Assembly: GCA_965223325.1 (NCBI GenBank)
Contig: CBDCWI010000001.1
Coordinates: 544,001-608,000, forward strand
DNA from: Candidatus Multivoradales bacterium
GTDB taxonomy: Bacteria > Acidobacteriota > Thermoanaerobaculia > Multivoradales > Multivoraceae
DNA: 64,000 bases
Direction: 5' to 3'
The position numbers were made by a program, and so were the translations under genes. Below the pieces are notes generated by a model, which had not been told where the DNA came from, ran no database searches, and saw nothing but the letters and a program-made list of their open reading frames with translations. Positions 7,728 to 51,800 of the stretch are shown in pieces (the first letter of the stretch is position 1; the number at the start of each line of letters is the position of its first letter).

Positions 7728-8342
7728 TCAGCCGTCGGCCATCGCCTGGGCGCCGCGCATGATCATGCGCACCTCGACGATGATGCGCTCCGCGACCGCC
7801 GGGCGCTCCTCGGGCGGCAGGTCGAGCGATGCAACCCCGAGGTTGAAGGCGACGGTCACCATCGCCTCGGCGGCGTGATGAGGATGGAGAATCGGCCGAT
7901 CGGTAGCTTCGGCCTCGCGCACCAGATCCTCGGCCAGGTCGTCGGCGAAGCGACTGATCTCCTTCGAGATCGCCCGCCTGAACTCGGGGGTGTTGCCTGC
8001 TCCTTCACCCAGCAGCAGCCGAAACTGGTGCGGCTCCTGACTGGCGAACTCCATGAACGTGTTGATGCAGTTCGAGATCACGTTGCGGTTGCCGTGCTCG
8101 TCGACCCGATGACGCGCCTCACGCACCAGTTGACGGAGGGACATACCGACCTGGTCGACCAGCGCCAGGCCGAGGTCGTCGATCGAGCGGAAGTGCCGGT
8201 AGAAGCTCGCCGGAGCGATTCCTGCCTCGTTGGCCACCGCCCTCAGGCTGAGGCTCGAGACGCCGCGCTCGGCGCTCAGGCGCAGGGCGGCAGCCATGAT
8301 GCTGTTGCGGGTGGCTTCCTTCTGATCGGCGCGCGTCGTCAT
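7728..8342 (-). CDS. fabR: TetR-family fatty-acid regulator, FabR/DesT-like
   Basis: From ATG 8342: RADQKEATR..LSAERGVSSLSLRAVANEAGIAPASFYRHFRSIDDLGLALVD..G..LRQL.REAR, closely following the E. coli FabR N-terminus as I recall it ([39 protein letters not shown]). Confidence 0.85.
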   Translation of the reverse strand: MTTRADQKEATRNSIMAAALRLSAERGVSSLSLRAVANEAGIAPASFYRHFRSIDDLGLALVDQVGMSLRQLVREARHRVDEHGNRNVISNCINTFMEFASQEPHQFRLLLGEGAGNTPEFRRAISKEISRFADDLAEDLVREAEATDRPILHPHHAAEAMVTVAFNLGVASLDLPPEERPAVAERIIVEVRMIMRGAQAMADG

Positions 8343-8599: not shown

Positions 8600-10222
8600 A
8601 TGGAAGCCCACGCTGCACCCCCCAAGAGCGGTGCACAGGCAAGGTCAGCCTTTCGACAAGCGGACATTCTCGAGATCGTGCGCCAGCCACGCCAGCCGGT
8701 CAACATCGTCCTCGACCCAGGCACAGGGGCGCGTGGCGTAGCCCTCGCCGAGGCCTACGGAGAGCCAAGGACCAATGGACATCCCGGTCCCGAGGTGCTC
8801 ACAACCCTCCCGGCGCTCTTCCCGGAGTGGCTCGGCGACCGTTCGTTCACCGACACCCACGGCGTTCGCTACGCCTACGCGTCGGGCGCGATGGCCAATG
8901 GCATCGCCTCGGCACGGCTGGTGATCGAGATGACTCGCGCTGGTTTCCTGTCTTTCTTCGGCGCCGCGGGCCTGACGCCCACGCGTGTGAACCAGGCCTT
9001 GGATGAAATCGAGGCCGCGGTCGGGACCGCCGCCGACGGCGCGATCTGGGGCGCCAACCTGATCCACTCTCCCAACGAACCGGCCATCGAAGCCTCTGTC
9101 GCCGAGCTCTATGTCCGGCGCGGCGTACGGCGCGTCTCGGCGGCAGCGTACATGGGTCTAACGCCGCACATCGTGCGCTATGCCGCCACCGGTCTCGAGC
9201 GTGTCGCCGACGGCCGCATCGTCCGTCGCAACCATGTCTTTGCAAAGGTATCGCGCCCCGAAGTGGCACGGCACTTCATGCAGCCGCCACCCGCCGACCT
9301 TCTCGACGGGTTGGTCGCCGACGGCAAACTGACCCAGAACGAGGCTCTGCTGGCGCGCGAGCTGCCGGTCGCCGAAGACTTCACCGTCGAGTCAGACTCC
9401 GGCGGTCACACCGACAACCGTCCCCTCGGCGCTCTCTTGCCCACCATCCTGGCGCTGGCTTCTGAGATCAGCGAAGAGCGTTCGTACCATCGTCCGTTGC
9501 GCGTCGGCGCGGCCGGTGGGCTCGGAACACCGGGTGCGGTCGCCGCGGCGTTCGCGCTCGGGGCGTCCTATGTCCTGACCGGCTCGGTCAACCAGGGCTG
9601 CATCGAATCGGGCCTCGACGCGCTTGGCAAGACCATGCTGGCCGACGCCGGCATCGCCGACGTGGTAATGGCGCCGGCCGCCGACATGTTCGAGCTCGGG
9701 GTCGAAGTCCAGGTTCTAAAGCGCGGCACGATGTTCGGCGTGCGAGCCAAGAAGCTCTACGAGCTCTACCGCGAGTACGATGCCCTCGAGGCCCTTCCCG
9801 ACGACGAACGCCAGCGCCTCGAGCGCGAGGTGCTGCAGAAGACCGTCGAGCAGTCCTGGGCCGACACGCGCGAGTTCTGGCTCCAGCGCGACCCGGGTGA
9901 AGTCGAGCGTGCCGAGCGTGACCCGCGTCACAAGATGGCCCTGGTGTTTCGCTCTTACCTCGGCCTCGCCAGCCGCTGGGCGATCGACGGCCAGAGTGAC
10001 CGCCGTCTCGACTACCAGATCTGGTGCGGGCCCGCGATGGGCGCCTTCAACACCTGGGTGCGCGGCAGTTTCCTCGAGGACCCAGCCGAACGTCGCGTCG
10101 TGCAAGTGGCGCGCAACCTCATGGAGGGCGCAGCGGTGATCACACGCGCGCAGCAGCTGCGCAGCTTCGGCGTTCCCGTCCCGCCCGCCGCCTTCTCTTT
10201 CCGCCCTCGCCTTCTCACCTGA
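8600..10222 (+). CDS. pfaD: PUFA synthase enoyl reductase (PfaD / myxobacterial Pfa1)
   Basis: GAMANGIAS, NLIHSPNEP, ESDSGGHTDNR, VGAAGGLGTP, MAPAADMFELGV.VQVLKRGT.F, DYQIWCGPAMGAFN. Confidence 0.95.
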   Translation: MEAHAAPPKSGAQARSAFRQADILEIVRQPRQPVNIVLDPGTGARGVALAEAYGEPRTNGHPGPEVLTTLPALFPEWLGDRSFTDTHGVRYAYASGAMANGIASARLVIEMTRAGFLSFFGAAGLTPTRVNQALDEIEAAVGTAADGAIWGANLIHSPNEPAIEASVAELYVRRGVRRVSAAAYMGLTPHIVRYAATGLERVADGRIVRRNHVFAKVSRPEVARHFMQPPPADLLDGLVADGKLTQNEALLARELPVAEDFTVESDSGGHTDNRPLGALLPTILALASEISEERSYHRPLRVGAAGGLGTPGAVAAAFALGASYVLTGSVNQGCIESGLDALGKTMLADAGIADVVMAPAADMFELGVEVQVLKRGTMFGVRAKKLYELYREYDALEALPDDERQRLEREVLQKTVEQSWADTREFWLQRDPGEVERAERDPRHKMALVFRSYLGLASRWAIDGQSDRRLDYQIWCGPAMGAFNTWVRGSFLEDPAERRVVQVARNLMEGAAVITRAQQLRSFGVPVPPAAFSFRPRLLT

Positions 10223-10243: not shown

Positions 10244-13200
10244 ATGAAGATCTCTCCCGCCGACCGCTCCCCGATCGCCATTACCGGAATCAGCGCCCTT
10301 TTCCCCGGGTCGCTCGACGCCACCGGTTTCTGGCGCGACATTCTCGCCGGAGAAGACCGCATCACCGAAGTGCCAACGTCGCACTGGTTGATCGAGGACT
10401 ACTACGATCCCGACCCGACGGTCCCCGACAAGACCTACGGCAAGCGCGGCGGGTTTCTCAGAGACGTGCCATTCGACTCGATGGCCTGGGGGATTCCCCC
10501 CAACATCGTGCCCGAGACCGACACCTCGCAGCTCCTTGCCTTGATCGTCGCGCAGGCAGTTCTCGACGACGCGACGAAGGCGGGGAACGGGGTCGATCGG
10601 GATCGCACATCGGTCATTCTGGGAGTGACCTCGGGCCAGGAGCTCCTCGGTTCGATGGTCAGCCGGCTGCAGCGGCCGGTATGGATCAAAGCGCTGCGTG
10701 AGTCTGGCGTACCCGAGACTGAGGCGATCGCGATCTGCGAGCGCATTGCTTCGCACTACACCGACTGGAACGAGAGCACCTTCCCGGGCCTACTCGGCAA
10801 CGTCGTCGCCGGTCGCATCGCCAACCGCCTCGATCTCGGTGGCACCAACTGCGTGACCGATGCGGCCTGCGCCTCGACCTTCTCGGCCCTGTCGATGGCG
10901 GTCTCTGAACTGCAACTCGGCGACTCGGATGCGGTGATCGCCGGCGGCGTCGATGCGATGAACGACATCTTCATGTTCATGTGCTTCAGCAAGACACCGG
11001 CACTCTCGCCAACCGGCGACTGCCGGCCGTTTTCTGACCAGGCCGACGGCACGATGCTCGGGGAAGGGCTCGGCATGGTGCTGCTCAAGCGCCTCGAAGA
11101 CGCCGAACGCGATGGCGACCGGATCTACGCCGTCATCAACAGCGTCGGCGCGTCGTCTGACGGCCGGTCGAAGAGTGTCTACGCGCCGGTTTCGGCCGGC
11201 CAGGCCAAAGCACTCGAGCGCGCCTACGAGCTCGCCGGCTACGGCCCCGACACGGTCGAACTGCTCGAAGCGCACGGCACCGGCACGATCGCTGGCGACG
11301 CCGCCGAGTTCAACGGCCTCTGCCTGGCGTTCGACCGCCAGCGCTCCGACCGCCAATGGTGCGCCCTCGGTTCAGTGAAGTCACAGATCGGTCATACCAA
11401 GTCGGCCGCCGGGGCCGCGGGTCTGCTCAAGGCGGTCTTGGCGGTGCACCACAAGGTGCTTCCGCCGACCATCAAGATCGACAAACCCAATCCGGCCCTC
11501 GACATCGAGACATCGCCCTTCCACTTCGCACTGCGCTCGCGCCCCTGGGTTCGAGGCAGAGATCACGAGCGGCGCGCTTCGGTGAGTTCCTTCGGCTTCG
11601 GCGGGTCGAACTTTCATGTCACCGTCTCGGAGTATCAGGAGAAAGAAGACAGCCCGGCGACCGCGGCCCCGAGGCTGCGAGCCGAGGGTGCCGAGCTGCT
11701 CTTGTTCTCGGCCGCTGAAGCTGCCGGCGTTGAAGCCCAGCTGAACGAAGCGCTCCAGATGGCCGACGAACCTGGTGCGCTCGCCTTTCTCGCCCACCGC
11801 GGCCAAGACCGATTCGACGCCCAGGCGCGCTGTCGCCTGGCGATGGTCACCAACGAAGAAGACCTCGCCGAGCGCCTGGGCGAAGCCAGCGGGCACCTCA
11901 CGCGCGCCCCTCACGAGTCGTTCGAAACCCCCTCGGGAACGCTCTACCGCGACGTGCCCGACGCCGGGTCCAGAGACGACGGCAAGACCGCGTTTCTGTT
12001 CTCCGGCCAGGGCAGCCAGTACATCGACATGGGCGGCGAGCTGGCGATGCACTTCGACAGTGCGCGCGAACCGTGGGATCTCGCCGCAGACTTCGACTGG
12101 ACGAGCTCGGGTGAGGAGAATCATCGCCTCCATCAGGTGGTGTTCCCACCCAACGCCTTCTCTGACCAGGCGCGGGCCGAGCACAGCGGGCGTTTGTCGG
12201 CGACCGAATGGGCGCAGCCCGCGATCGGATGCGTGAGCCTCTCGATGCTTTCACTCCTCGGCGACCTCGGCCTGGCTGCCGATGCATTCGCCGGCCACAG
12301 CTTCGGCGAGGTCACCGCTCTGTGTGCGGCGGGCGCCATCTCGCCGGAGGATTTCTTGGAGGTCGCACGGCGTCGGGGCGAGTTGATGCGCGACGCCGCC
12401 AGTGCACCCGGCGCCATGACCGCCGTCGCGGCGACCCTCGACCAGGTCCAAAGCGTGCTCGGCGAGGGGCCCAGCGAAGTCGTGGTGGCCAACCACAACC
12501 ATCCCGAGCAGGTCGTGCTCTCAGGGCCGACCCCGGCAGTCGAAGCGATCGAAAAGCGCTTCGACAAAGAAGGCATCACGGCGCGCCGCTTGCCGGTGGC
12601 CACTGCCTTCCACTCACCGATCGTCGCGCCGGCGAGTCTTGCGTTCGGCGAGTTCCTGGCGGGAGTCGACTTCGAAGCTCCAGTTCTACCGGTCTACTCC
12701 AACACCACCGCCACTCACCACCCCACCGCGCCGGCGACGCTCCGGGAACGAATCGCCGAACAGCTCGCACACCCGGTGCGCTACGTCGACATGATCGAAG
12801 CGATGTATGCCGACGGCGTGCGCACCTTCGTCGAGGTGGGTCCCGGATCGATCCAGACCAGCCTGGTGAGAAGGATCCTAGGCGACCGGCCACACCGAGC
12901 GGTCAGCCTCGATCGCAAGGGGCAACACGGCCTGGTGCCGTTTCTGCGTGGCATCGCGACCCTGGCAGTCGACGGCCACGCGATGTCCTACGAAGCACTC
13001 TGGAAGGGCTATGACGCCCCGAGCGATCCGCGCGAGCGCCCGGTGCCGAAACTCTCGATTGCGATCAACGGCGCCAACTACGGCAAGCCCTACCCACCGC
13101 TCGAAGGAGCGAGCGTTCTGCCGGGACCCAACCCGGCACGCGAGCCGGTTGCTGCGGCCGCCCCAGCACCGGCGAAGCCGGCGGCACCTGCGCGCCCCCC

Positions 13201-16200
13201 CGCTCCGCCGGTCGCGACCGAGCCCGCAGCGCCCGGACCGCAAATGGCGGCCGCCGTGCAGGAGACGCAGCGCCAAACCGCCGAGGCCCATTCGCGGTAT
13301 CTCGAAATGATGGCCGAGAGCCACACAGCGTTTCTCGACGCCATGGAGCGCGGCATGCGCGTCGCAACCGGCGATACTTCCGGAGCGACCCTATCGACGG
13401 AGCCAGTGGCTGACCCGGTAGAACCGCTGCAACCACCTTCCTCGGCAGTTCCCGCGGCCTCACCTGCTCCACCGGTCGCGCCACCACCGGAAAGACCGGC
13501 CAGCTCGCCGCCGCAACCAGCAGCTGTCGATCTTCGCGCCGTGATGCGCCAGGTGGTCTCCGAAAAGACCGGTTACCCCAGCGAAATGCTCGACGAGAGC
13601 ATGGAGCTCGAGGGCGATCTCGGAATCGACTCGATCAAGCGTGTCGAAATCCTCTCGGAAATGACCGATCGTGCTCCCGGCCTACCCGAGCTCGACACCG
13701 CTGAGCTGGCCGAGCTGCAGACTCTCGCTCAGGTGGTCGCCTACCTCCAGGAAAGGCTACCGAGAGCAACAACAACCGCGGCGGCGCCACCGGCCCCCGA
13801 AGCCGTTTTTCCGGCAATCGACCTGCACCAGATGATGCTGCAGGTGGTTTCGGAAAAGACCGGTTACCCCGCCGAGATGCTCGACGACGCCATGGAGCTC
13901 GAAGGCGATCTCGGAATCGACTCGATCAAACGCGTTGAGATTCTCTCCGAGTTGACCGACCGCGCCCCCGGCCTGCCGGAGCTCGATACCGCTGAGCTCG
14001 CCGAACTGCAGACGCTCGGCCAGGTGGTCGCCTACCTCCAGGAAAGGCTACCGAGAGCAACAACAACCGCGGCGACGGCACCGGCCCCCGAAGCCGTTTT
14101 TCCGGCAATCGATCTGCACCAGATGATGCTGCAAGTGGTTTCGGAGAAGACCGGTTACCCCGCCGAGATGCTCGACGACGCCATGGAGCTCGAAGGCGAT
14201 CTCGGAATCGACTCGATCAAACGCGTCGAGATTCTCTCCGAGATGACCGACCGCGCCCCCGGCCTGCCTGAGCTCGATACCGCTGAGCTCGCCGAACTGC
14301 AGACCCTCGGCCAGGTCGTCGCCTATCTCGAAGCCAGGCTCCCCGGTCAAACCTCTGCGGGTACCGGAGAGCCGATGACGACTGCCGGACCCGAGACCCG
14401 CGACACGACCACTCCTGGCAGTCCGGCCTTTGGCCGCTTCGTTCTCACTCCGGTCGAGCGACCGGCGCCGGGACTGGCGGTCCGCGGCTTGTTCGGGCAG
14501 GGCCCGCTCTATGTCACCGAGGACCGGGCGTTCTCAGAGGGCGAAGGAGTCCAGGAGGCCCTGGTCAACCGGCTCCGCGCCGAGGGCATCGACGCCCGCG
14601 CCGGCAACGTCCCAGCGACCAACGGCAGCACCCCGCCGCTCGGCGTGATCGTGCTCTCAGGTCTCCGCGCAGTCGACGACGCGCAGGATGCAACGGCCGT
14701 CAATCGCGAGGCGTTCGCGCACGCCCAGGCCGCCGCTCCTTACCTCGTCGAGGCTTCCGAAGGTGTCTTCGTCACGGTGCAGAACACCGGCGGAGCCTTC
14801 GCCCACGACAAAGGCCGCGGACAGTCGGCGATGGATCCGGATCGTGCCTGGCTCGCGGGATGTGCCGCCCTCGCCCGAACGGTGGCCGCCGAGTGGCCGA
14901 GAATCGGAACCAAGGCGATCGACATCGAAGGCCACGGTCGCACGGCTCGAGAGATCGCCGATGCGATTGCTTTCGAGCTCCTCGCCGGTGGTGCCGAGCT
15001 CGATGTCGGCCTGCTCGCCGACGGGCGACGGATCCTGCTCGCTGATCCCCAGTGCGCACCGCGTCCCGAGAGGCCAGCTCTCGAAGACGGCGATGTTGTC
15101 GTCGCCGCGGGCGGTGGGCGCGGCGTCACGGCCGCGACGCTGATCGCCCTCGCCGGCACCGCGAAGCTTCGGTTCGTCTTGCTCGGCCGCACCGCAATAA
15201 CCGAAGAACCTGCCTGTTGCCGGGGGGTCCAGGGAGACGCGGAGCTCAAGCGCGCCCTCCTCACCGATGCCTCGGAGCGCGGCGAGAAGCTCAGGCCGGC
15301 CGAGCTCGGGCGAACGGTTTCGAAGATCCTCGCCAACCGCGAGATCGACGCGACTCTTTCAGCCATTCGTGCCGCCGGTTCGGAGGCACGCTACGTCGCC
15401 ACCGATGTCACCGACGCTCGAAAACTCGCCGCCTCCCTCGACGAGGTGCGCTCCTCGTGGGGCGAGATCGCCGGCGTCGTCCATGGGGCGGGAGTTCTCG
15501 CCGACAAGTTGATTGGCGAGAAGACAACCGAGCAGTTCGACCGGGTGTTCGACACCAAAGTCCTGGGTCTTCGGGCCTTGCTCGAAGCAACCGCGAAGGA
15601 CCCGCTGCGGGCGATCTGCCTGTTCAGCTCGGTCGCCGCCCGAACCGGCAACCTCGGTCAAAGTGACTACGCGATGGCCAACGAAGTGCTCAACAAGGTC
15701 GCCCAGGTCGAAGCGCGAAGGAGGGGCGACAGCTGCGTCGTCAAGGCGATGGGCTGGGGTCCCTGGAAGGGGGGCATGGTGTCCGACGAACTGGCGGCGC
15801 ACTTCGAGAGCCAGGGAGTCCCCTTGATTCCGCTCGACGTCGGCGCACAGATGCTCGTCGACGAGCTCGACCATGGTGACGCAGCAACCATCGAGGTCAC
15901 CCTCGGCGGCGATCCCGGTGGGGCGCGCATGAACGCCACCGACGGTTCATACCGAAGCGAAGTGCGCATCGACCACGAGAGTCACGCCTTTCTCTTCGAC
16001 CACAGCATCGACGGGACGCCGGTGGTGCCGATGGTGCTGGCCCTCGAGTGGTTTGCGCGCGCCGCGCGCTCGGCAGCCGGCGACCAGGTGGTCACTGGCC
16101 TGAGCGACTTCGAAGTCGTGCGCGGTATTGCACTACCGGAGCTCGACGCCCGCCCGGCACGTTTCACCATCGACGCAAAGCCAGAAGCAGGAGGAGCCGA

Positions 16201-16780
16201 GCTCGACCTCGAGCTGCGCGCTCCCGACGGCGCACTGCACTATCGGGCGCGGGCGCGGTGTGTGTCTGCCCAGGATCTCGAGCCCTCGAACGGATCAGCA
16301 GCAGAGCTCGACCTCGAGCTCGAACCGTGGGGTGACCGGGTGATCTACGACCATCCGGCGCTCTTCCACGGGCCGCGCTTCCAGGTCATCGAAGGGGTCG
16401 ACGGCCTTTCCGATCGGGGCATCGCGGTGCGCTTGCGCGGAGTCGCCGCCAGCAACTGGACCGGCAAAGGCGAACAGCCGCCGGGCTCCGCCGCCGGTGG
16501 CGGCTGGTTCACCGATCCCGCGGCGCTCGACGGCGGATTGCAAGCGGCGATCCTGTGGTGCGATCACGTCCTCGATGGCCGTGCCCTGCCCACCCGCATC
16601 GACAAAGTCGAGCTCGGTCGCGCGCTGCCCACCGGCAACGGCCTGCGTTGTGAAGTGAGTGGTCGCGAGAGTGCCAACCACCGCGGCATTTCCGATGTTC
16701 GTTTCCTCGACGGCAACGGCCAGCTCCTGTTCGAGCTGCGTGGTCTGCAGACCCACGTGCGCGCACCCTCCGCTTCGTAG
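10244..16780 (+). CDS. pfaA: PUFA synthase KS-MAT-ACPx3-KR-DH (PfaA / Pfa2)
   Basis: KS DAACAS, EAHGTGT, GHTK. MAT GHSFG and AFHS. Three ACPs with DLGIDSIKRVEIL. KR GGGRGV and DYAMAN. DH DHSIDGTPVVP. Confidence 0.95.
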   Translation: MKISPADRSPIAITGISALFPGSLDATGFWRDILAGEDRITEVPTSHWLIEDYYDPDPTVPDKTYGKRGGFLRDVPFDSMAWGIPPNIVPETDTSQLLALIVAQAVLDDATKAGNGVDRDRTSVILGVTSGQELLGSMVSRLQRPVWIKALRESGVPETEAIAICERIASHYTDWNESTFPGLLGNVVAGRIANRLDLGGTNCVTDAACASTFSALSMAVSELQLGDSDAVIAGGVDAMNDIFMFMCFSKTPALSPTGDCRPFSDQADGTMLGEGLGMVLLKRLEDAERDGDRIYAVINSVGASSDGRSKSVYAPVSAGQAKALERAYELAGYGPDTVELLEAHGTGTIAGDAAEFNGLCLAFDRQRSDRQWCALGSVKSQIGHTKSAAGAAGLLKAVLAVHHKVLPPTIKIDKPNPALDIETSPFHFALRSRPWVRGRDHERRASVSSFGFGGSNFHVTVSEYQEKEDSPATAAPRLRAEGAELLLFSAAEAAGVEAQLNEALQMADEPGALAFLAHRGQDRFDAQARCRLAMVTNEEDLAERLGEASGHLTRAPHESFETPSGTLYRDVPDAGSRDDGKTAFLFSGQGSQYIDMGGELAMHFDSAREPWDLAADFDWTSSGEENHRLHQVVFPPNAFSDQARAEHSGRLSATEWAQPAIGCVSLSMLSLLGDLGLAADAFAGHSFGEVTALCAAGAISPEDFLEVARRRGELMRDAASAPGAMTAVAATLDQVQSVLGEGPSEVVVANHNHPEQVVLSGPTPAVEAIEKRFDKEGITARRLPVATAFHSPIVAPASLAFGEFLAGVDFEAPVLPVYSNTTATHHPTAPATLRERIAEQLAHPVRYVDMIEAMYADGVRTFVEVGPGSIQTSLVRRILGDRPHRAVSLDRKGQHGLVPFLRGIATLAVDGHAMSYEALWKGYDAPSDPRERPVPKLSIAINGANYGKPYPPLEGASVLPGPNPAREPVAAAAPAPAKPAAPARPPAPPVATEPAAPGPQMAAAVQETQRQTAEAHSRYLEMMAESHTAFLDAMERGMRVATGDTSGATLSTEPVADPVEPLQPPSSAVPAASPAPPVAPPPERPASSPPQPAAVDLRAVMRQVVSEKTGYPSEMLDESMELEGDLGIDSIKRVEILSEMTDRAPGLPELDTAELAELQTLAQVVAYLQERLPRATTTAAAPPAPEAVFPAIDLHQMMLQVVSEKTGYPAEMLDDAMELEGDLGIDSIKRVEILSELTDRAPGLPELDTAELAELQTLGQVVAYLQERLPRATTTAATAPAPEAVFPAIDLHQMMLQVVSEKTGYPAEMLDDAMELEGDLGIDSIKRVEILSEMTDRAPGLPELDTAELAELQTLGQVVAYLEARLPGQTSAGTGEPMTTAGPETRDTTTPGSPAFGRFVLTPVERPAPGLAVRGLFGQGPLYVTEDRAFSEGEGVQEALVNRLRAEGIDARAGNVPATNGSTPPLGVIVLSGLRAVDDAQDATAVNREAFAHAQAAAPYLVEASEGVFVTVQNTGGAFAHDKGRGQSAMDPDRAWLAGCAALARTVAAEWPRIGTKAIDIEGHGRTAREIADAIAFELLAGGAELDVGLLADGRRILLADPQCAPRPERPALEDGDVVVAAGGGRGVTAATLIALAGTAKLRFVLLGRTAITEEPACCRGVQGDAELKRALLTDASERGEKLRPAELGRTVSKILANREIDATLSAIRAAGSEARYVATDVTDARKLAASLDEVRSSWGEIAGVVHGAGVLADKLIGEKTTEQFDRVFDTKVLGLRALLEATAKDPLRAICLFSSVAARTGNLGQSDYAMANEVLNKVAQVEARRRGDSCVVKAMGWGPWKGGMVSDELAAHFESQGVPLIPLDVGAQMLVDELDHGDAATIEVTLGGDPGGARMNATDGSYRSEVRIDHESHAFLFDHSIDGTPVVPMVLALEWFARAARSAAGDQVVTGLSDFEVVRGIALPELDARPARFTIDAKPEAGGAELDLELRAPDGALHYRARARCVSAQDLEPSNGSAAELDLELEPWGDRVIYDHPALFHGPRFQVIEGVDGLSDRGIAVRLRGVAASNWTGKGEQPPGSAAGGGWFTDPAALDGGLQAAILWCDHVLDGRALPTRIDKVELGRALPTGNGLRCEVSGRESANHRGISDVRFLDGNGQLLFELRGLQTHVRAPSAS
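13529..14340 (+). repeat. Three tandem ACP-coding units, 291-bp period, near-identical DNA
   Basis: Repeated gaaaagaccggttacccc...ggcgatctcggaatcgactcgatcaa blocks starting at about 13529, 13820 and 14111. Confidence 0.9.
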
Positions 16781-25944: not shown

Positions 25945-26898
25945 TCAGTTCGTGAGCCGCTTCCAGACGCCGCGCGACTCGGCGACGCTGTCCGCCCAGG
26001 GCGTCACGTACTTGGCAATCGCTGCCTGCATGCCCTCGAGATGCGGCGGGGTCATGAACGAACCGTGAGTGTAGCCACCCGTTGGCATCAACTGAATCGA
26101 CTTCGCAACCGCCGGCAGAGCGAGACCGAGTCGCGCGAGGTCCCAACGAATGAAAGCGGTGGCGAACCGCACGGTGGGGGTGTCGCGAAAGGGATGGTTG
26201 ATCACCCAACCGACGAACTCACCCTTGTAGCGGATACCGAGACTGGTGTGTTTGCACGCCATCTCAGGGGTAAAGAGCCAGAAACACAGGGCGTCCGGGA
26301 TCCACTTCTCCTGGGCGTTCTTCTCCCTGGCCGCGAGCTTCTCGGCTTCCTCGATGTCGGACCAGGGCACCGTCTCATAGTTCCGGACGCGCGGGAGCTT
26401 GCGTAACCACGGCGCTTCGAGAATGCGGTCTTGACGAAACCTGGCGGTGGCGAAGCGGAACTCCGGAGGCTCGCAACCGAGGGCGAGGAGAAGCTCTTCG
26501 AGGTGAGCGATGCTCGGTTTGCCGGTCATGTAGGTGCCGAATACGACGGGTTGCTCGTTGTCGCGGAGAAACGCCTCGGCCTCCTCGAAGAGCATTCTGG
26601 CAACCCCCTGGCGCCGGAAGTCACGGCCGGCGAAGACCGACAGCACATCCGCGTTGCGCTGCATGTCGCGCTTCTCACTGGTCTCCTCAGGAAAGGAGCC
26701 CAGGAGGAGGCCGACCGGGCGTAGACCGTCGAAGGCGCCGAAGGCGAAAGGCTTCCGCGCGATCTTGTAGTCCGGCTGGGTTGGATCGTCGAGAACGTTG
26801 GTGAACCTCTCGAGATTCAGGAGATGGCGGTAGGCGGGAAAGGTGTAGCCTGCGAACTCGACCGCTTCGCTGGCGTTGAGTCGGCGCACCTCAACCAT
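25945..26898 (-). CDS. GNAT-family acyltransferase (about 317 aa, probably tandem GNAT fold)
   Basis: ATG 26898 overlaps the FAAL stop (ATGGTTGA). Motif A LSVFAGRDFRRQGVA and a second degenerate motif (FIRWDLARLG). YTFPAYR N-terminus, SLGIRYKG..VGW.I.H. Confidence 0.8.
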   Translation of the reverse strand: MVEVRRLNASEAVEFAGYTFPAYRHLLNLERFTNVLDDPTQPDYKIARKPFAFGAFDGLRPVGLLLGSFPEETSEKRDMQRNADVLSVFAGRDFRRQGVARMLFEEAEAFLRDNEQPVVFGTYMTGKPSIAHLEELLLALGCEPPEFRFATARFRQDRILEAPWLRKLPRVRNYETVPWSDIEEAEKLAAREKNAQEKWIPDALCFWLFTPEMACKHTSLGIRYKGEFVGWVINHPFRDTPTVRFATAFIRWDLARLGLALPAVAKSIQLMPTGGYTHGSFMTPPHLEGMQAAIAKYVTPWADSVAESRGVWKRLTN

Positions 26899-28981
26899 CG
26901 GAGGGCTCCGGCGTGCCAGCGGGAAAGCTCGTTGCCACCGCGAGCCCTGCCTCGTCGAGCACGTACCTGGCGATCGACTCGAGGCTGCCGCCCTCGAGCA
27001 AGAGGTCGACGTCGAGTTCGACTCCCAGTTGGTTCTCGACCTCATGACTGAGGTTCATGATCGCCACCGAATCGAGCCCGGTGTCGGCAAGCGGCGCGTC
27101 GGTCGCTACCTCACTGAGATCGACCTCGAGAGCACTGGCCAAGGAACGCTTGAGACTCTCCTCCAGAACCGCTTCGCGCTCTCCTGCCGGGTAGGCCGAC
27201 AGTTCTTCCAAGCCAAGGAGCCCGCCATCTTCCTCCGGTTCAGAAACGTCCTGAGCGATCACTTCGAGCGACCCGGCGAGGAACGCCTGCCGCGTCGCAT
27301 GACGCTGGATCTTGCCGCTCGAGGTCTTGGGAATCGTCCGCGCTTCGATCAGAACCACCGCATGCGGACGCAGCGCGTCTTCGCGCAAGAGAGTGCGCCT
27401 GATCGCGCCGATGACGTCGTAGGCATCCGTTCCTTCGAGTTCGCTCCGGCGAACTTCCTGAACGACGACCAGTTCTTCTGATTCGTCTTTTGCAACAGCA
27501 AAGGCAGCGCCACAACCTGGCCGCAGCACCTGGTGCGCTCGTTCGACCGTCGCCTCTACGTCCTGGGGATAGACGTTTCGACCGCGCAGAATGATCAGGT
27601 CCTTCACCCGGCCGGTGACGTAGAGCTCACCGTCGTGCATGAAGCCGAGGTCGCCGGTTCGGAGAAACGGCCCCTCGCCCGAGCTGAGCCGCGCTCTGAA
27701 CACCTCCTCGGTGTCCTGCGCGCGCTGCCAGTAGCCACGGGCGACGTTTCCGCCGCGCACCCAGATCTCGCCGATCTCGCCTGCATCGACTTCACGGTGC
27801 TCGTCGGAACCAACGATGCGTACGTCCTGGCCTGGCAGCGGTTCACCGCAACTGGTGAGCTCGATGGTCGCCACGTTCATGTCGGTGATTCGTTCGACAG
27901 GCGCCACCCTTCGTTCACCGAGCTCCTTACGCTTGACCACCAGAGTGTTATGCAACCGACCGATGTGTCCGCTCGAGATCGACAACACGGTCTCGGCCAT
28001 GCCGTAGCCCTGGAAGAAGGCGCGTTCATCAAAGCCACAGGGGGCAAAGGTTTCGGCAAACCTGGAAAGCGTCTGCGCCGAGATCGGTTCCGCGCCGACG
28101 AGAGCCATTCTCCACGAGGCGAGATCGAGACCAGCTCGGTCCTCTTCGCTGACGCGCCGGGTGCACAACTCGAAGCCGAAGTTCGGACCGGCGCTGAACG
28201 TCGCGCGGTAGCGATCGATCGCACGCAACCAGCGGGAGGGTTTCTGCAGAAAGTCCATTGGCGACATGAGAACCGAACGCGCGCCGACGTAGACCGGGTG
28301 GACGACACCGCCGATCAGACCGAGGTCGTGGTAGAAGGGCACCCAGGACAGGATGACGGTCTCTTCGTCGCTGCCCGAGCGCTCTCTCATCTGCTCCTGA
28401 TTGAACAACAGGTTGGCGTGGTCGATGACGACGCCCTTGGGCGAACCGGTCGATCCGGAGGTGTATTGCAGGAAGGCCACCGAGTCACCGCTCAGGTCGG
28501 GTTCCTTCCAGTTCGAAGAATCGCCCGTTGCCAGTTCGTCCGAGGCCAGCCAGTCGAGCCCGCTGAGCAGCTCGTCGTCCGGGAACATGAACGCCGCCAT
28601 TTGACGAATCGGCGACGTCGTCAGCACCGCGCCTGCGCTGGCGTCGGAGATGATCGCTTTGACCCGCGGTAACGTGCGGTCGATGCGGGCGGGATCAGGA
28701 GGATAGGCCGGAACCGCGATGGCGCCGGCATAGATCGAGGCGCAGAACGCCGCGACGAAGTCGAGGCCTGGAGGGTAGAGCAGGAGAACGGGGTTGCCCG
28801 TCGCGCCCTTCGCCTGCAGTGCAGCCGCGATCGCCAGGCACCGCTCTTCGAGCTCTCCCCAGGTGAGCGAGCTCTCCTTGCTCTCACCGTCCTCGAGGTA
28901 GGTGAAGGCGAGCCGGTCGGGGGTCACGCGCGCGCGCCGGCGCAGGATCTGCAGGAGGCTCGAAGCTTCGGTTTCAGACAT
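26891..28981 (-). CDS. Fatty acyl-AMP ligase fused to a C-terminal ACP (FAAL-ACP)
   Basis: From ATG 28981: FLQYTSGSTGSPKGV, SWVPFYHDLGLIG, GYGMAE followed by a FAAL-type insertion, FLRTGDLGF, GRVKDLIILRGRNVYPQD, PKTSSGKIQR. ACP motif GLDSV. Confidence 0.92.
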   Translation of the reverse strand: MSETEASSLLQILRRRARVTPDRLAFTYLEDGESKESSLTWGELEERCLAIAAALQAKGATGNPVLLLYPPGLDFVAAFCASIYAGAIAVPAYPPDPARIDRTLPRVKAIISDASAGAVLTTSPIRQMAAFMFPDDELLSGLDWLASDELATGDSSNWKEPDLSGDSVAFLQYTSGSTGSPKGVVIDHANLLFNQEQMRERSGSDEETVILSWVPFYHDLGLIGGVVHPVYVGARSVLMSPMDFLQKPSRWLRAIDRYRATFSAGPNFGFELCTRRVSEEDRAGLDLASWRMALVGAEPISAQTLSRFAETFAPCGFDERAFFQGYGMAETVLSISSGHIGRLHNTLVVKRKELGERRVAPVERITDMNVATIELTSCGEPLPGQDVRIVGSDEHREVDAGEIGEIWVRGGNVARGYWQRAQDTEEVFRARLSSGEGPFLRTGDLGFMHDGELYVTGRVKDLIILRGRNVYPQDVEATVERAHQVLRPGCGAAFAVAKDESEELVVVQEVRRSELEGTDAYDVIGAIRRTLLREDALRPHAVVLIEARTIPKTSSGKIQRHATRQAFLAGSLEVIAQDVSEPEEDGGLLGLEELSAYPAGEREAVLEESLKRSLASALEVDLSEVATDAPLADTGLDSVAIMNLSHEVENQLGVELDVDLLLEGGSLESIARYVLDEAGLAVATSFPAGTPEPSDG

Positions 28982-29031
28982 CAGCGGGGCCCTTGGGAGG
29001 CATTCGCACCAGCCTCCAAAGAGCGCTGACT

Positions 29032-31161
29032 CTATCGCGGCGGGTGGTTCTTCCCGGCCTTCTCGGGCTTCCCGGGCGTCTCGCTCCCTTCCTCGTCGTC
29101 CTTCGGAGGGACGGGCAGGTCGACTTCGTTGCCCCACAGCCACTTCTCGAACCACTGCCAGTTGTGCCACACCGCTGCCAGGCGCTCCTTTGGTTTGTTG
29201 ATGCCGTGGCCGAAGCCCCGGTAGATCACCAGGCGAGTCGGCACGCCGACGTCCTGCAGGCCCTGGTAGAGCTCGAACGCATTCGGGGTGGGCACCCGCT
29301 GATCGAACTCGCCGTGCTGGATGAGAGTCGGAGTCTGAGCGTCTTTGATGTAGGTCATCGGCGAGGTTTTGGCGTAGATCTCCGGGTCGTCCCAGGGCGT
29401 CGCCTCGAGGTAGGCACGGGTAAAGCCGTGGATGTCGGTGTTGACGTAGTACGTCATCCAGTTCGAGATTCCTGCACCGTTCGAGATTGCCTTGAACTTG
29501 TCGCTCGTGGTGGCCAGAAACGCTGAGATGTAGCCGCCCTGGCTCCAACCCATCGCACCGACCTTGCCGGGATCGGCGAGGCCGCGCGCGACCAGCGCCT
29601 CGACTCCGCTTTCGACATCCCAGGCGTCGCCGACTCCCAGGTTACGCACGTTGAGCGAACGGAAAGCCTCGCCGTAGCCAGCCGAGCCGCGGTAGTTCGG
29701 CATCAAGACAATGGCGCCCTTCGCCAGCCACTGCTCGATCGGGTAGACGTAGCCACCGATCAAGCGCGGTCGCGAGGTGCCCGTGGGCCCACCGTGGATG
29801 ACCACCAGGAGCGGTGCAGGCCGACTCCGGTCGTGGCCGACTGGAAGAAACAAGACGCCCTCGATCTCGGTTCCGTCGCGACTGGTCCAGGTGGTGAGCT
29901 CACGTTTTCCGAGAGGCCACTCCGCCGTCTTCTCGGTGTGATGGGTCAACTGCTGACGCGCGCCAGGCTGCGCGATCGACGCTACGAAAACCTCCGGCAG
30001 CGTGGTACTCGTCTCGGAGATGAAGGCGACGCTCGCGCCGTCGTCTGAGAAGGCAGCTCCGTAGACGGCGTCCGCACCGAGCTCGAGCGCGCGCGCCGCG
30101 CCGCCCTTGGTCGTGAGCTGGAAAACGCGGCGCGCGGTGCGCTGGCTCGCTCCGAAGATCACCCCGTGGTGTTCGCTCCAGGCGACCGGAAAGGCATCTT
30201 CGTCGAAGAACTCGGTGAGGGTTTCGATTTGCCCACTCGCCACATCGACCTTTGCCAGCCTGCTGTTGCCATACCAGTCGCTGGCACCGCGCGGCGTGGT
30301 GATCAAGAGCGCCTCGCCGTCAGGCGACCAGAAGCCGAGGCCGTCACTCCCGGCCTCTCGAACGAGCGGCCGCCGGTCGCCGCTCCTGCTGTCGACGAGC
30401 GACACATCAGCCTCAGGAAAGGCATCGATCTGGGGACGCGGGCGATGACCGATGGCGATTGTCCGACCGTCGGGTGAGAACTCGAGGTCGTCGACCGTTA
30501 TGTCGGTGCCCTCGGTGAGCTGGCGGGCGGCGGCACCGGGGGTGGCCTCGGCGATGAAGAGATGTTGATGACGGAGATCCTGGTCTTCGACGCGGTAGGC
30601 GCCATAGGTGTCCTCTCGCTCCTTGGCGGGGTCGTCCTCGGCGGAAGAAACGAAGGCGATCGACTCACTATCCGGTGACCAACGGTAGGAGCCGACGCCT
30701 TCCTCGGCATCGGTGAGCTGCTCTGCTTCTCCGCCCGCCAGCGCCATGCGGTAGACCTGCGGCTTCGCCTCGTCGCCCTCACCACGAGTCGAGATGAAGC
30801 TCAGCCAACGACCGTCGGGGGAAAAGGCCGGAGAACTCGCGCTGCCCGAGGCGGTGCGCGTGAACTGGCGCCCCTCGCCGAAAGGCCCGTCGCCTTGCCG
30901 CTTGGCCACCCAGATCTCGGTGTCGTAGCGGTTCTCGTCCCAGTCTGTCGTCCGCTCGGTCCAGGCCACCGCCGAACCATCCGGAGCGATGCACACCGAA
31001 CCGACCGACACCAGATCGATCACCTCGCGGAAGGTCGGCGCACCCGGCACCACCGTTTCTTCGAGTGCCGCCGGTGGCTCACTCTCGGCGGATACGGGGG
31101 TGGCGGGGGTCACGGCGAGCAGCGCAAGGAACGAGAGCGCGGCGAGAACGATGATCTTCAT
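29032..31161 (-). CDS. Secreted S9 peptidase (acylaminoacyl/dipeptidyl aminopeptidase-like)
   Basis: Signal peptide, beta-propeller W/FSPDG repeats, IHGGP, NYRGS.GYG, GWSQGG nucleophile, HGEFDQRVP, GHG. Confidence 0.92.
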   Translation of the reverse strand: MKIIVLAALSFLALLAVTPATPVSAESEPPAALEETVVPGAPTFREVIDLVSVGSVCIAPDGSAVAWTERTTDWDENRYDTEIWVAKRQGDGPFGEGRQFTRTASGSASSPAFSPDGRWLSFISTRGEGDEAKPQVYRMALAGGEAEQLTDAEEGVGSYRWSPDSESIAFVSSAEDDPAKEREDTYGAYRVEDQDLRHQHLFIAEATPGAAARQLTEGTDITVDDLEFSPDGRTIAIGHRPRPQIDAFPEADVSLVDSRSGDRRPLVREAGSDGLGFWSPDGEALLITTPRGASDWYGNSRLAKVDVASGQIETLTEFFDEDAFPVAWSEHHGVIFGASQRTARRVFQLTTKGGAARALELGADAVYGAAFSDDGASVAFISETSTTLPEVFVASIAQPGARQQLTHHTEKTAEWPLGKRELTTWTSRDGTEIEGVLFLPVGHDRSRPAPLLVVIHGGPTGTSRPRLIGGYVYPIEQWLAKGAIVLMPNYRGSAGYGEAFRSLNVRNLGVGDAWDVESGVEALVARGLADPGKVGAMGWSQGGYISAFLATTSDKFKAISNGAGISNWMTYYVNTDIHGFTRAYLEATPWDDPEIYAKTSPMTYIKDAQTPTLIQHGEFDQRVPTPNAFELYQGLQDVGVPTRLVIYRGFGHGINKPKERLAAVWHNWQWFEKWLWGNEVDLPVPPKDDEEGSETPGKPEKAGKNHPPR

Positions 31162-31305: not shown

Positions 31306-32358
31306 ATGTTCAGCTCTCGTCCACTCGCTACCCCCATCGCTCTCGCTCTCGCCGTCGGCCTCCCTCTCGTACCCATTGAGGCACAGCAACAAGGTGCGTT
31401 CGCCCAACGCATCCAGGTTCAGAACGAGGCCACCGCGGCGCTTCTCGCGCCCGACGCGTTGCGGGTTCTCGTGTGTGGTTCGGCGTCGCCGCTCGGTGCC
31501 GATCCCAAGCGCGAGCAAGCCTGCCTGGCGGTGATCGCCGGTCCTCGCGTCTTCGTGGTCGATGTTGGCTCTGGGTCCAACAACAACCTTTCGCTTGCCG
31601 GAATCCCGATGCGGAACCTCGAGGCCGTTCTGCTCACTCACTTTCACTCCGACCACATCGGCGCGCTCGGCGATGTCAACCTCAGCTCGTGGGTCGGGGG
31701 AAGGGATACGCAGCTGGAAGTGGTCGGGCCTCCGGGAGTCGAACGGGTGGTTGCGGGCTTCAACGAAGCATTCGCCCTCGACCGCTCCTACCGCACAGCG
31801 CACCATGGCGAGGACCTGCTCCCCCCAGCGGTCGGCACGATGAAGGCACGCAGCGTCGAGCCGGGCGTGATACTCCAAGACGCCGGCCTCAAGATCACAG
31901 CGATCGAGGTCGACCACGAGCCAGTCACCCCGGCCTACGGCTACCGCTTCGACTACCTGGGCCGCTCGGTCACGATCAGCGGCGACTCAGACAAGAGCGC
32001 GACGCTCATCGAGGGAGCGCGCGGCAGCGACATTCTCTTCCACGACACCATGGCCGAAGGGATCCTTCAGACCATGGAGGGCGCCTTTCGTGCGGCGGGC
32101 AACGAACGCACCGCCAAGATCGTTCTCGACGTCCAGGACTACCACGCAACGGTTCAAGAAGTCGCCGAGACGGCGACCGCTGCCGGAGTCAAGATGACCG
32201 TCTTCTACCACCTGGTGCCCAACCCGGCGAACCCAATGGTGCTCGCGGGGTTCCGCGCCGGCGCGCCAGAGAACACGGTCATCGCAGCAGACGGCATGCT
32301 CTTTACACTCGCCAAGGATGGTGAAGAGATCGAACGGACGACTCTTTTCGAGCGTTGA
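31306..32358 (+). CDS. Exported metallo-beta-lactamase-fold hydrolase (RNase Z/AtsA-like)
   Basis: Signal peptide, LVCGSASP, VDVGSG, THFHSDH, VDHEP..AYGYRF, ISGD, YH. Confidence 0.85.
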   Translation: MFSSRPLATPIALALAVGLPLVPIEAQQQGAFAQRIQVQNEATAALLAPDALRVLVCGSASPLGADPKREQACLAVIAGPRVFVVDVGSGSNNNLSLAGIPMRNLEAVLLTHFHSDHIGALGDVNLSSWVGGRDTQLEVVGPPGVERVVAGFNEAFALDRSYRTAHHGEDLLPPAVGTMKARSVEPGVILQDAGLKITAIEVDHEPVTPAYGYRFDYLGRSVTISGDSDKSATLIEGARGSDILFHDTMAEGILQTMEGAFRAAGNERTAKIVLDVQDYHATVQEVAETATAAGVKMTVFYHLVPNPANPMVLAGFRAGAPENTVIAADGMLFTLAKDGEEIERTTLFER

Positions 32359-48840: not shown

Positions 48841-48859
48841 CACCGGCCGGCCTCCACCA

Positions 48860-51800
48860 ATGATCCAGCAACCCAACAACGTCCCGACGTCGGCGGCCTA
48901 CACCTCCGCGCGCCACCGTCGACGGCCCCGGTCGGCGTTGGTTCGGGTCGCGAAGACCACCCTCATCGTGTTCTGGACCCTCGCGCTGGCGCTTCACCAG
49001 GGGGTTGGCGCCCAGAGTGGAGTTCGCCAGACCACCACCTTCGAGGTGCAAAGCGGCGAGCCCCCCGAACCCCAGAGCCTACGCGTTCTCGTCCAGGGTC
49101 AGGCGAACCCGGTCGTCGACATCCAGCCCCTGGCGCAGAGCGAGGTTGTGATCTGGGTCGATCTCCCGCTTTCGACCCCAGAGGGCCTCGGTGCCTCGCT
49201 CAGCGCCCTTGCCGAGCGCGCCGACCAGTTGCTGGCGCTCGGTCCGCTGCACATCGTAGTCGCCGATCGCACCGTCGAAACTGTGCTCGAGCCAGGGGGT
49301 AACGCGCGCGACGTCGCCTTCTTCCTCCGCCGTATCGCCCAGCAACGAGCAAGAGACGCCGGCACCCTCCTCGAACGACGGCACGAGCTGCTACAGACCC
49401 TCGAGCGCGAGACCTGGCAGGTCGATGCGTTGACTCTCCTGGCGGAAGAAAACGAGATCCTCACCTGGCAACAGGATCTTCTGCGGGCCGCGTTCGCGGA
49501 CCGGAGCCCTGGGCGCCGCGGCGTTCTCTTCATGCTACGCGACGGCTACGACACCGACCCCCTCGATCTCCTGCGCGAGCTCAAAGAGCCCGACCCGCGC
49601 TTCGAGCGGCGCGCCGACTTCGGAGCCGCAAGCGGCCACCGCGATCTGGCGCGCACCCTCTCCGTTCAGGGATGGGTGACCGTTCCGCTACGACTGGGCG
49701 AGGTCTCGGGCAACGAGGGCGAGAAGGATCCTCTGCCCGGCAGCCAGGCGACCCTCGAAGACTTCTCGCGCGCCGGGGGCAGCCGAGTGGTCACCAACGC
49801 CGCGGAGCTCGACCAGGAACTGGAAACCCTCAGTCGCGCCTACCGCGTGACCTGGCAAAGCGCCCAGACGATCGCCGAGCCCACGCCGATCGATCTGCAG
49901 GCGACCCAGCCTTCGGGTGCCCTTGCCGACCTGCGATGGCGCCGCTGGACGACTTCGGTCGCACCGGCAGGCATCGCGCGCCACCGCGCTCAACAGATCA
50001 TCGACGGCTTCGTCGCCTCGTCAGGAGGCACCCTGGCCGATCAGCGTGGCGACCTCGACATCGAAGGGGTGTTGCTGCTCGGCGCCCTTGGCGAGGAGGC
50101 AACCCTCGACGCAGCCCTCGACCTGGCTTCGGTTCCGGGTCTCTCCGCCGGCGCCGGCATGCTGGTCGACGCCACGCGCTTCCGTCTCACTCTCCTGACC
50201 CGCGGGTTCGATACTGGCGCCAAGAGTCACCAGACGCGCGGCGAGGGTGGCATCCGCGCGACAACCGGCCGCTGGTTTCACCAGACACGCTTTCCGGTGC
50301 CCGCCGATCTCGACCGCGCGGCATTGGTCGTCGAGGACCTGGTCACCGGTGCGTGGGGCGCGGTCCCGGTCGAAGTCTCGACCCGGCCACTCGCGCGGTC
50401 GGGCGGCGTGCAGCGGCCACCGCCTCCTGCCGGTCAGCCGTCTGACCGGTTGGCGGTGAACAACCGATCCGGCTCGGGCGACCCGGGCGGGCCGGGTGCC
50501 TCACCAGACCCGAGCGCCAAACCGGCAGCAGGTACGACGCGACCTCTCGGCCCAGCAGGCCTGATCGAGCTGGTACCTCCGCGCGGCGATCAACTGCGGG
50601 GCAAGGTGCGGTTCAAAGTGCTCTTGGCAACCGCCGGAGTGGCAGCGGTGCGCTTCGAGCTCGATGGTCGCGAGGTCGCAATCGACGAGCGCTCGCCGTT
50701 CGGCGCCGAGATCGACCTCGGCCCAAGCGTCGCTCCACACGTCGTGCGAGCAGTTGCCATGAGCGGCGGCGGGCTCGAAATGGCGAGCGACTCCTACGAG
50801 CTCAACCGGCCACGGCAACGGACGGGGGTACGCATCACCCGCCTGGAGCAACAGCCCGACGGCTCGATCGATACCTCAGCCGAGCTCACCCTCGAGGAAG
50901 GCACCCGGCTCGACCGCGTCGAGTTCTACCGCAATCAACAACTCGTTCTGACACTGACCCAACCGCCGTTTCGCGCCCGCCTGCCCGCCACCGGTGCGAT
51001 CGGCAGCGACTTCGTCCGCGTTGCCGCCTGGCTCGACGACGGTGCGATGCTCGAAGACGCCCGCCTGGTCGGCGAAGACGTAGCCAGCGAGCGCATCGAC
51101 GTCAACCTCGTGCAGGTGTTCGTGGTCGCTACCGACCGCGAAGGCAACCCGATCGACGGCCTCGATGCTTCAGACTTCGAGCTCAAGCGGGGTCGCGCAA
51201 CGCAGGAAATCGAGCGCTTCTCGGTGGCCGATGAAGTGCCACTGGTTCTGGGTCTGGTGGTCGACACATCGGGCAGCATGATGCCCATCATGTCGGACAC
51301 CCAGCGTGCTGCGGCGCGCTTCATCTCGGAGACCCTGACCGACATCGATAAGGGCTTCCTGGTTGATTTCGACGATCGCGCACGCCTGGCTCATCCAGTC
51401 ACCGGCCGGTTGATCGACCTCGTCCAGGCTCTTGGCGGCCTCGAGCCCGACGGCAACACCGCGCTCTATGACGCGATCGTCTTTTCGCTCCTACAGTTCG
51501 AGGACGCGCCCGGACGGCGAGCGCTCGTTCTCTTGTCAGACGGCGACGACTACCGTAGCCGCTTCGGTTGGAAGCGCACCTGGCAAAACGCCAAAGAGAG
51601 CACCGTCCCGATCTATGTCATCGGCCTCGGTGGCCTCGACCCCGAACGGGCCTCGTTTCGCAAAGACGATCTCGAGGTGATTGCCAAAGACTCCGGCGGT
51701 CGCGTGTTCTACGTCGAATCGATGGACGAGGTACGCGCCGCCTACGACATCATCGGCAAGGAGCTCCGCAGTCAGTACGTCCTCGGCTTCACCACCGACG

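Follow-up and report, generated by a model that had tools for sequence, protein, structure and literature searches.

The 64,000-nucleotide stretch of DNA analysed here, referred to as the window, spans positions 544001-608000 of contig C1 of G000, a Candidatus Multivoradales genome of 6.69 Mb that is 98% complete. The window contains a cassette of three genes on the minus strand, which encode an S9 peptidase, a fatty acyl-AMP ligase fused to an acyl carrier protein (FAAL-ACP, P0002) and a GNAT N-acyltransferase (P0001), next to the pfa genes of a polyunsaturated fatty acid (PUFA) synthase (Table 1). We were concerned mainly with the FAAL-ACP and GNAT pair, hereafter the module, and with the acyl group and the acceptor on which it may act. 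A first-pass annotation made from the letters alone had described the arrangement of the cassette, and our coordinates agreed with it throughout. In particular, a gap of 50 bp separates the S9 peptidase gene from the FAAL-ACP gene, the FAAL-ACP and GNAT genes overlap by 8 nt (the GNAT ATG lies at 26898 and the FAAL-ACP stop ends at 26891), and the GNAT gene, whose product has about 317 aa as described, ends 10 bp away from the stop codon of pfa3 at 25934, with which it converges tail to tail. The ACP retains its serine, Ser638, in an intact GLDS motif at residues 635-638. A domain scan confirmed that the three-gene cassette contains no condensation or ketosynthase (KS) domain, and a sigma-70-like promoter was not found at the cassette.

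Table 1. Features of the cassette and of the adjoining PUFA synthase cluster, in window coordinates.
Feature	Position	Strand	Details
GNAT N-acyltransferase P0001, tandem, selidamide family, FAAL/pfa-linked clade	25945..26898	-	317 aa; PF00583 at 37-130
Fatty acyl-AMP ligase-ACP fusion P0002	26891..28981	-	696 aa; AMP-binding 13-418; PP-binding 609-674
S9 peptidase, beta-propeller, probable signal peptide	29032..31161	-	709 aa; PF00326, E 3e-48; N-terminal hydrophobic stretch
FabR-type TetR repressor, divergent from pfa1	7728..8342	-	
pfa1, enoyl reductase	8600..10222	+	
pfa2 (PfaA-type): KS, acyltransferase (AT), three ACPs, ketoreductase (KR), dehydratase (DH)	10244..16780	+	TIGR02813 over cut-off
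pfa3: KS, chain length factor (CLF)-like, AT, FabA-like DHs, C-terminal AGPAT-like acyltransferase PF01553	16788..25934	+	open frame from 16659

A first homology search with the GNAT revealed 76 homologs, seven of which showed 54-66% identity (one partial) and the others 38% or less. Homolog loci confirmed by alignment numbered 104; the best 80 were kept, and the counts over 80 given below refer to these. The loci were mostly labelled Acidobacteriota, many of them Thermoanaerobaculia. The lanthipeptide synthetase LanM was found at 57/80 loci, an NHLP precursor match at 39/80 and an efflux-gene match at 41/80; FAAL-ACP was present at 2/80 and pfa1 at 1/80. The usual gene order was a sigma-54 activator, NHLP, LanM, GNAT, two outer-membrane efflux genes and an NHLM exporter. 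Among 15 proteins scanned, all seven long homologs of 1374-1445 aa (P0349, P0351, P0352, P0353, P0358, P0361 and P0369) were LanM-GNAT fusions. Fusions to DUF4915, methyltransferase, FemAB or P450 were seen in more distant GNATs (P0365, P0367, P0370, P0379, P0401 and P0411). A lysine occupied one of core positions 1-4 at every one of the 52 GNAT loci with a detected core, from 79 loci examined.

The precursor cores at three of these loci (L055, L041 and L081) were exact matches to Table S5 rows of PMC13060382, which belong to the npu family (nostolysamide), and P0001 aligned over its full length with the GNATs of the same loci at 28-30% identity (E 2e-34 to 4e-44). The family link to NpuN runs through these relatives listed with npu. 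The predicted structure of P0001 (predicted local distance difference test score of 94) was a tandem GNAT, and its best structural matches, 2wpw (Z-score of 17.6, root mean square deviation (rmsd) of 5.6, 275 aligned residues) and 5kf1 (Z-score of 17.9, rmsd of 5.3, 269 aligned residues), are both tandem GNATs. Additionally, the canonical P-loop, R95-x-x-G98-x-A100, was identified within the N-terminal domain. A sequence search of the PDB with the GNAT returned weak single-domain GNAT matches only. NpuN is likewise described as a tandem GNAT (PMC13060382). Because the Table S5-identical cores come with full-length GNAT alignments, the loci are rich in LanM and the model is a tandem GNAT, P0001 is assigned on sequence grounds to the selidamide family, a family that includes acidobacterial members and takes its acyl groups from central metabolism (PMC8784127). 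The likeness to selidamides drawn in the first-pass annotation was thus correct, and the full-length alignments and identical cores sharpen it to the level of the family.

Within this family, the window GNAT grouped with those of L021, L050 and L128 and with five close proteins in one branch (Shimodaira-Hasegawa-like approximate likelihood ratio test value of 99) of an 89-row tree, which was obtained by a quick search with midpoint rooting after exclusion of P0006 and of rows with fewer than 240 aligned residues; L021 is the same DNA as L013 and was counted once. The branch is long. This clade is also rare: when a profile of eight close members was used, just two clusters at 50% identity scored more than 300 bits. 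A metagenome scan yielded 1 locus from 510 pattern matches. All 11 clade proteins carry Ala at positions 150, 190 and 263, which are large-to-small changes relative to the other family GNATs, and each has at most one basic residue at 255-259, compared with a mean of 2.2 in 77 others. Taken as sequence positions, these substitutions would be compatible with a larger acyl site and acyl group, with lost CoA contacts and with a donor other than CoA. A complex prediction for the GNAT with an NHLP precursor of G000 scored 0.01, which gave no answer, and it was not used as evidence.

The FAAL-ACP gene overlapped the start of the GNAT gene in all four clade loci with DNA, which supports the earlier suggestion that the acyl group of the FAAL-ACP is likely taken over by the GNAT. 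A synteny check, also suggested earlier, showed that a myxobacterial-type pfa cluster adjoins the module in the same four loci in three arrangements. At L013, the module is divergent from pfa1-pfa2, and FabR and FAAL-ACP share one open frame; L128 has the order FAAL-ACP, GNAT, pfa1, pfa2 and is cut upstream of FAAL-ACP; and at L050 the contig end cuts a pfa1-like start after 27 codons (score 52, reached by none of 2000 shuffles). No amine-making gene was conserved across the four loci. As judged from these neighbourhoods, the GNAT clade has left LanM adjacency.

The FAAL-ACP matched NF004509 with 466 bits, compared with 360 and 202 bits for the best long-chain CoA ligase models, each of these scores lying below the cut-off of its model. 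Its best solved relatives were FAALs (E 1e-161 to 1e-74), and the alignment ran through residues 340-375, which we take to be the FAAL-specific insertion. On these comparisons, the protein is closer to FAAL than to the acyl-CoA ligase families. The nearest relatives outside the clade were FAAL-ACP proteins extended by a condensation (C) or KS domain, which are starter modules of nonribosomal peptide synthetases (NRPS) and polyketide synthases (PKS). Two of the three closest homologs, all at 61%, are on contigs that match those of the GNATs P0005 and P0007 in size and source, from which we infer two further FAAL-ACP/GNAT pairs (P0005/P0080, 22-kb contig, and P0007/P0079, 33-kb contig); P0078 is on a contig of 1.46 Mb. 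A FabR domain opens two of the three (P0078 and P0080), and an ortholog of the window FabR, 65-70% identical, lies in one open frame with FAAL-ACP in L013, P0078 and P0080. This frame (L013:8754-11621; P0078; P0080) contains a linker of 65-80 aa and an internal Met, and may encode either a single protein that joins regulator and enzyme or two separate ones. G000 has another FAAL-like gene (33%), at C2:3520393-3524209, together with a free ACP-like gene and a type III PKS-like gene, the labels being given by eye.

By gene order and domains, the window pfa genes are a PUFA synthase of the myxobacterial type, for which the described layout is pfa1 with an enoyl reductase, pfa2 with KS-AT-ACPn-KR-DH and pfa3 with KS-CLF-AT-DH-AGPAT (PMC6731297). 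Near-identical pfa clusters without a linked FAAL-ACP were found in G010 and G015. A ligase match downstream of the G015 pfa3 was considered as a FAAL-ACP and rejected; by eye, it was class I acyl-CoA-ligase-like and lay 2.5 kb away. G000 also contains a second pfa-like cluster (L189, C1:732694-750206), in which pfa1 is 51% identical and the pfa3-like gene has no acyltransferase domain match; it is followed by a KAS III/OleA-like gene (NF006720). A phosphopantetheinyl transferase-like gene was seen at C1:720332-721108 by motif scan only.

The window holds no NHLP precursor, as the first-pass annotation had stated, and the genome-wide search that it had suggested revealed four of them elsewhere in G000. 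Two, one of them at C1:1758258-1758587, open a complete LanM/NHLM cluster at C1:1.758-1.774 Mb, 1.19 Mb from the cassette, with the order NHLP-NHLP-LanM-efflux-efflux-HlyD-C39/ABC-ABC, in which LanM and all three NHLM models scored over cut-off; one further precursor is located at C1:1.344 Mb and another at C2:3.681 Mb. Each of the four 27-residue cores contains one Lys, at position 5, and one Cys. In the cluster, about 160 bp without a GNAT separate LanM from the efflux gene that comes first, and the window GNAT was the sole family member found in G000 by protein and profile searches. Sigma-54 boxes precede three of the four precursor genes (C1:1757958-1758257, C1:1343647-1343897 and C2:3680980-3681229); the box had 104 matches genome-wide, and 0.002 were expected per 250 nt. 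Among comparison genomes, the G008 cluster (L017:426-4976) includes three efflux genes, and an adenylation-carrier-reductase gene separates its NHLP precursor from LanM. In G012 (L154:12588-17333), the precursor cores are very long and rich in Gly, and the LanM cluster lacks a GNAT. The same-genus genome G001 (L131:3005-8440) has an NHLM exporter and NHLP-like genes, with no match to LanM or to a family GNAT. G105, G208, G291 and G294 were uninformative or had other LanM types.

The first-pass annotation had counted the S9 peptidase as a member of the cassette while allowing that it may be unrelated; its membership was not supported. The peptidase might be thought to trim or remove the leader, after which the GNAT would acylate the free N-terminus; its gene is co-oriented with the module, and a terminator-like site was not found in the gap before FAAL-ACP. 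However, no S9 gene lies upstream of FAAL-ACP at either informative relative, where the position is taken by FabR (L013) or by a sigma-54 activator (L050), and L128 is cut at that point. A distant S9 match occurred in 1 of 185 other fetched loci. G000 has seven S9-like genes, i.e. six paralog-like genes besides this one, and the probable signal peptide also speaks against such a role, as do the Gly-Gly site of the precursors and the C39 peptidase-exporter of the LanM cluster itself. We consider participation of the S9 peptidase in the pathway very improbable; it is probably a bystander that is co-oriented with the module.

Module, pfa genes and precursors appear to be parts of one locus in G300. 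Searches of this genome, which holds L050, gave a single match each for pfa1, the pfa3 end, LanM and the family GNAT. Contig C203 carries STAS, cNMP-FHA and sigma-54 activator genes followed by FAAL-ACP, GNAT and the start of pfa1, and its regulators are of the same kinds as those found before the precursors in canonical clusters. The remainder of pfa1 and the start of pfa2 are on C812. The end of pfa3 is on C751 together with a sigma-54 box, two NHLP genes whose cores carry Lys1, and a LanM start with weak matches (E 0.14-0.26), and on C323 LanM is followed directly by an efflux gene. From the cut genes, we infer that the four contigs derive from one hybrid cluster. A single contig, C751, places pfa3 beside NHLP genes. 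The family of G300 was searched in 77 genomes, of which 11 matched; in the ten others, an efflux gene lies downstream of the GNAT, with LanM upstream in eight and a contig end cutting two. Most simply, the G300 locus can be read as a selidamide cluster to which FAAL-ACP and pfa were added. At this sister locus, a precursor is encoded with the GNAT if the joins between the contigs hold, and at the window locus it is not.

Taken together, the data make a lysine of a ribosomally made, post-translationally modified peptide (RiPP) a rather likely acceptor of the GNAT, whatever the acyl group. Our preferred reading is more specific: FAAL-ACP and GNAT may form a selidamide-type module that acylates Lys5 of the NHLP precursors in trans, likely with a pfa-derived PUFA, which we propose tentatively and rate slightly short of an even chance. 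The FAAL would adenylate a fatty acid, likely a polyunsaturated one from the adjacent pfa synthase, and load it onto Ser638 of its own ACP. The GNAT would then take the acyl group from the ACP, not from CoA, and attach it to Lys5 with the leader still in place, acting in trans on precursors encoded elsewhere in G000. LanM would subsequently close one ring, and the C39 exporter would cut at the Gly-Gly site and export the lipidated lanthipeptide. Because the last domain of pfa3 is AGPAT-like and a thioesterase was not seen, the PUFA would need to be freed from phospholipid and then reactivated before FAAL loading; in an alternative supply, the FAAL-ACP may prime Pfa. A PUFA is the likely acyl group because the pfa linkage survives three rearrangements. 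The fullest form of the proposal, in which the PUFA synthase and a private FAAL-ACP supply lipid for the lanthipeptide and the GNAT, acting in trans over more than 1 Mb, has come to use acyl-ACP in place of acyl-CoA and a chain that is long and polyunsaturated, is held a little more tentatively again.

Several observations weigh against this proposal. In P0001, the residues aligned to NpuN Asp183, Tyr243 and His265 are Ala203, Val264 and Leu287, and the matching Tyr and His are missing in all 11 clade proteins, compared with Tyr in 63 and His in 48 of 77 others. This is a weak criterion, since the roles of the NpuN residues (proximity to the acceptor Lys, or action as general acid) were proposed tentatively by authors who state that they cannot be confidently assigned (PMC13060382). 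NpuN uses acyl-CoA in vitro (PMC13060382). The sigma-54 box that marks three of the four precursor genes of G000 was not found at the cassette. The window GNAT is not a moved copy of the GNAT of its own LanM cluster, an origin that was considered and rejected, as GNATs of that type (L017 and L099) form a different clade in the tree. The leader of G000 is 48% identical to that of G300 and 59-60% identical to the leaders of L073 and L099, which belong to canonical clusters; no cross-reaction of selidamide GNATs with the leaders of other systems was seen in PMC13647313, and a specificity switch would therefore be needed. G008 has both the module and a canonical LanM-adjacent GNAT (33%), with one precursor type, much like that of G000 and with one Lys, and the module is therefore not simply a replacement. 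In G012, at 98% completeness, an NHLP-LanM-efflux cluster is present and the search for a family GNAT found none, which means that an absent GNAT need not be supplied in trans. The first Lys of the G012 cores lies at 24-25, within a Gly run that is possibly cut later, which makes the position of this Lys a weak control. Among 300 genomes of the order, pfa1 was found at 62% identity or more in 16, and this GNAT clade in two of them (G000 and G008), and the module is thus an accessory. The clade sample comprises four loci from three genomes that are partly kin, and no sequence overlap was found between the ends of the G300 contigs L050 and L143, the one junction tested.

In a rival reading, the GNAT of the window subclade would have left RiPP work and would transfer the (poly)unsaturated acid on the FAAL-ACP either to an amine that is not a peptide or to a lysine of a protein (amino lipid, polyamine or membrane protein), and the lanthipeptide of G000 would remain unacylated. 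The long branch, the loss of the residues aligned to Tyr243 and His265, the distance of 1.19 Mb to the precursors, and control by FabR at a cassette lacking the sigma-54 box all favour such a departure, as do the second, canonical GNAT retained by G008 and the example of a GNAT-less cluster in G012. However, the sister subclade has the same residue changes and precedes pfa and NHLP-LanM genes in G300, and the four clade loci share no amine-making gene. Additionally, all three genomes examined that contain the module have early-Lys NHLP precursors and LanM, compared with a LanM match in 5 of 56 family genomes, although the three are kin and not independent. We regard this departure from RiPP work as unlikely, yet as one to be taken seriously.

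The acyl group itself can also be read differently. An NHLP lysine might be acylated with an ordinary saturated or monounsaturated acid, the pfa adjacency reflecting no more than shared regulation of fatty-acid genes by FabR. The characterised selidamides carry C10-C16 acids of primary metabolism (PMC8784127), and the nearest FAAL relatives outside the clade belong to NRPS/PKS starter modules. Moreover, pfa3 is thought to hand its chain to lysophospholipid (PMC6731297), and the PUFA would thus have a separate route into phospholipid, because the pfa3 acyltransferase motif is identical in module-linked and unlinked clusters. Against an ordinary acid, the pfa link outlasts the three rearrangements, pfa genes on a 20-kb scale appear to be located between the GNAT and the precursors in G300, and canonical selidamide clusters need no FAAL-ACP, which leaves this option improbable.

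A further order of events, similar to that in goadvionin biosynthesis, would have the FAAL-ACP prime Pfa, Pfa extend the chain, and the GNAT unload it from the Pfa2 ACPs onto the NHLP lysine. Free PUFA would not be needed, the GNAT GdvG draws its chain from a PKS ACP (PMC9811515), and the order FAAL-ACP, GNAT, pfa1, pfa2 is operon-like in L128 and L050; the didomains of the nearest relatives, fused to C or KS domains, are starter modules as well. On the other hand, myxobacterial Pfa starts from acetyl-CoA (PMC6731297), the clusters of G010 and G015 work with no FAAL-ACP linked to them, and it is the GNAT gene and not pfa2 that FAAL-ACP overlaps in all four loci. We judge this order of events to be improbable to a marginally greater degree than an ordinary acid, and retain PUFA transfer from the FAAL-ACP to the NHLP lysine as the preferred reading.

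Other genes were observed around these clusters. A secreted-looking hydrolase of the metallo-beta-lactamase fold, RNase Z/GntH-like with scores under cut-offs, is encoded at 31306-32358 (+) of the window, divergent from the S9 gene. An extracytoplasmic function (ECF)-type sigma factor and a TPR-CHAT protein lie upstream of FabR (2633-7709), and two large VWA/Ig proteins are encoded further downstream (45847-51895).

If the proposal is correct, side-chain acylation would be joined to a dedicated lipid supply, whereas the dedicated-lipid RiPPs known so far acylate the N-terminus. Bacterial PUFA synthases would gain a role beyond membranes, and the product would be a PUFA-bearing ribosomal peptide, of which none was found in the literature searched. 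It would also account for the apparent lack of an acyltransferase in the lanthipeptide cluster of G000 and would represent a RiPP maturase that cluster-based mining would miss. The set to be tested is small, with one precursor of 110 aa, one GNAT and one FAAL-ACP, and is a candidate gene-encoded tool to place long unsaturated lipids on a chosen lysine, which is an aim of selidamide engineering (PMC13647313). No report of a FAAL- or pfa-linked selidamide was found in the open-access literature searched, although Figures S14-S15 of PMC13060382, which present a network and neighbourhoods, may show such loci.

We compared the locus with the known systems that it most resembles. The myxobacterial pfa1-pfa2-pfa3 clusters share the three-gene order and the domain set, including the C-terminal acyltransferase, and the available text of PMC6731297 mentions no link to FAAL-ACP, GNAT or RiPP genes, in contrast to the FAAL-ACP and GNAT at the window locus. 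The FAAL-ACP starter modules of NRPS/PKS lipopeptides share the FAAL-ACP didomain, which is here partnered with a GNAT and not with a condensation or KS domain. The selidamides made with KspN, PhaN and NpuN (PMC8784127, PMC13060382, PMC13647313) share the GNAT family, the tandem fold, early-Lys NHLP/Nif11 precursors, a class II LanM and NHLM export genes. The known examples, as far as these sources describe them, use C10-C16 acids from primary metabolism and have the GNAT beside LanM. The window module differs in that FAAL-ACP and a PUFA synthase are coupled to the GNAT, the precursors are remote and the C-terminal domain is remodelled. Thus, judged by its sequence, the enzyme is a selidamide family member, and the locus lacks two traits of selidamide clusters, an adjacent precursor and an acyl supply from primary metabolism without dedicated lipid genes, FAAL-ACP and pfa adjoining the GNAT in all four loci. 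Goadvionin (GdvG) and lipolanthine pathways share dedicated lipid machinery, an ACP-bound donor (here predicted) and GNAT coupling to a lanthipeptide, and they are described, for Actinobacteria, as joining polar-headed polyketide chains to the N-terminus once the leader is gone, by a distinct GNAT lineage (PMC9811515, PMC8784127). The window module is instead predicted to involve a Lys side chain together with a Pfa-type synthase and a FAAL-ACP. Given the different lineage and acylation site described for GdvG (PMC9811515), the parallel drawn with it in the first-pass annotation applies to the donor alone. The window module would thus operate as a selidamide pathway whose private donor resembles that of the goadvionins.

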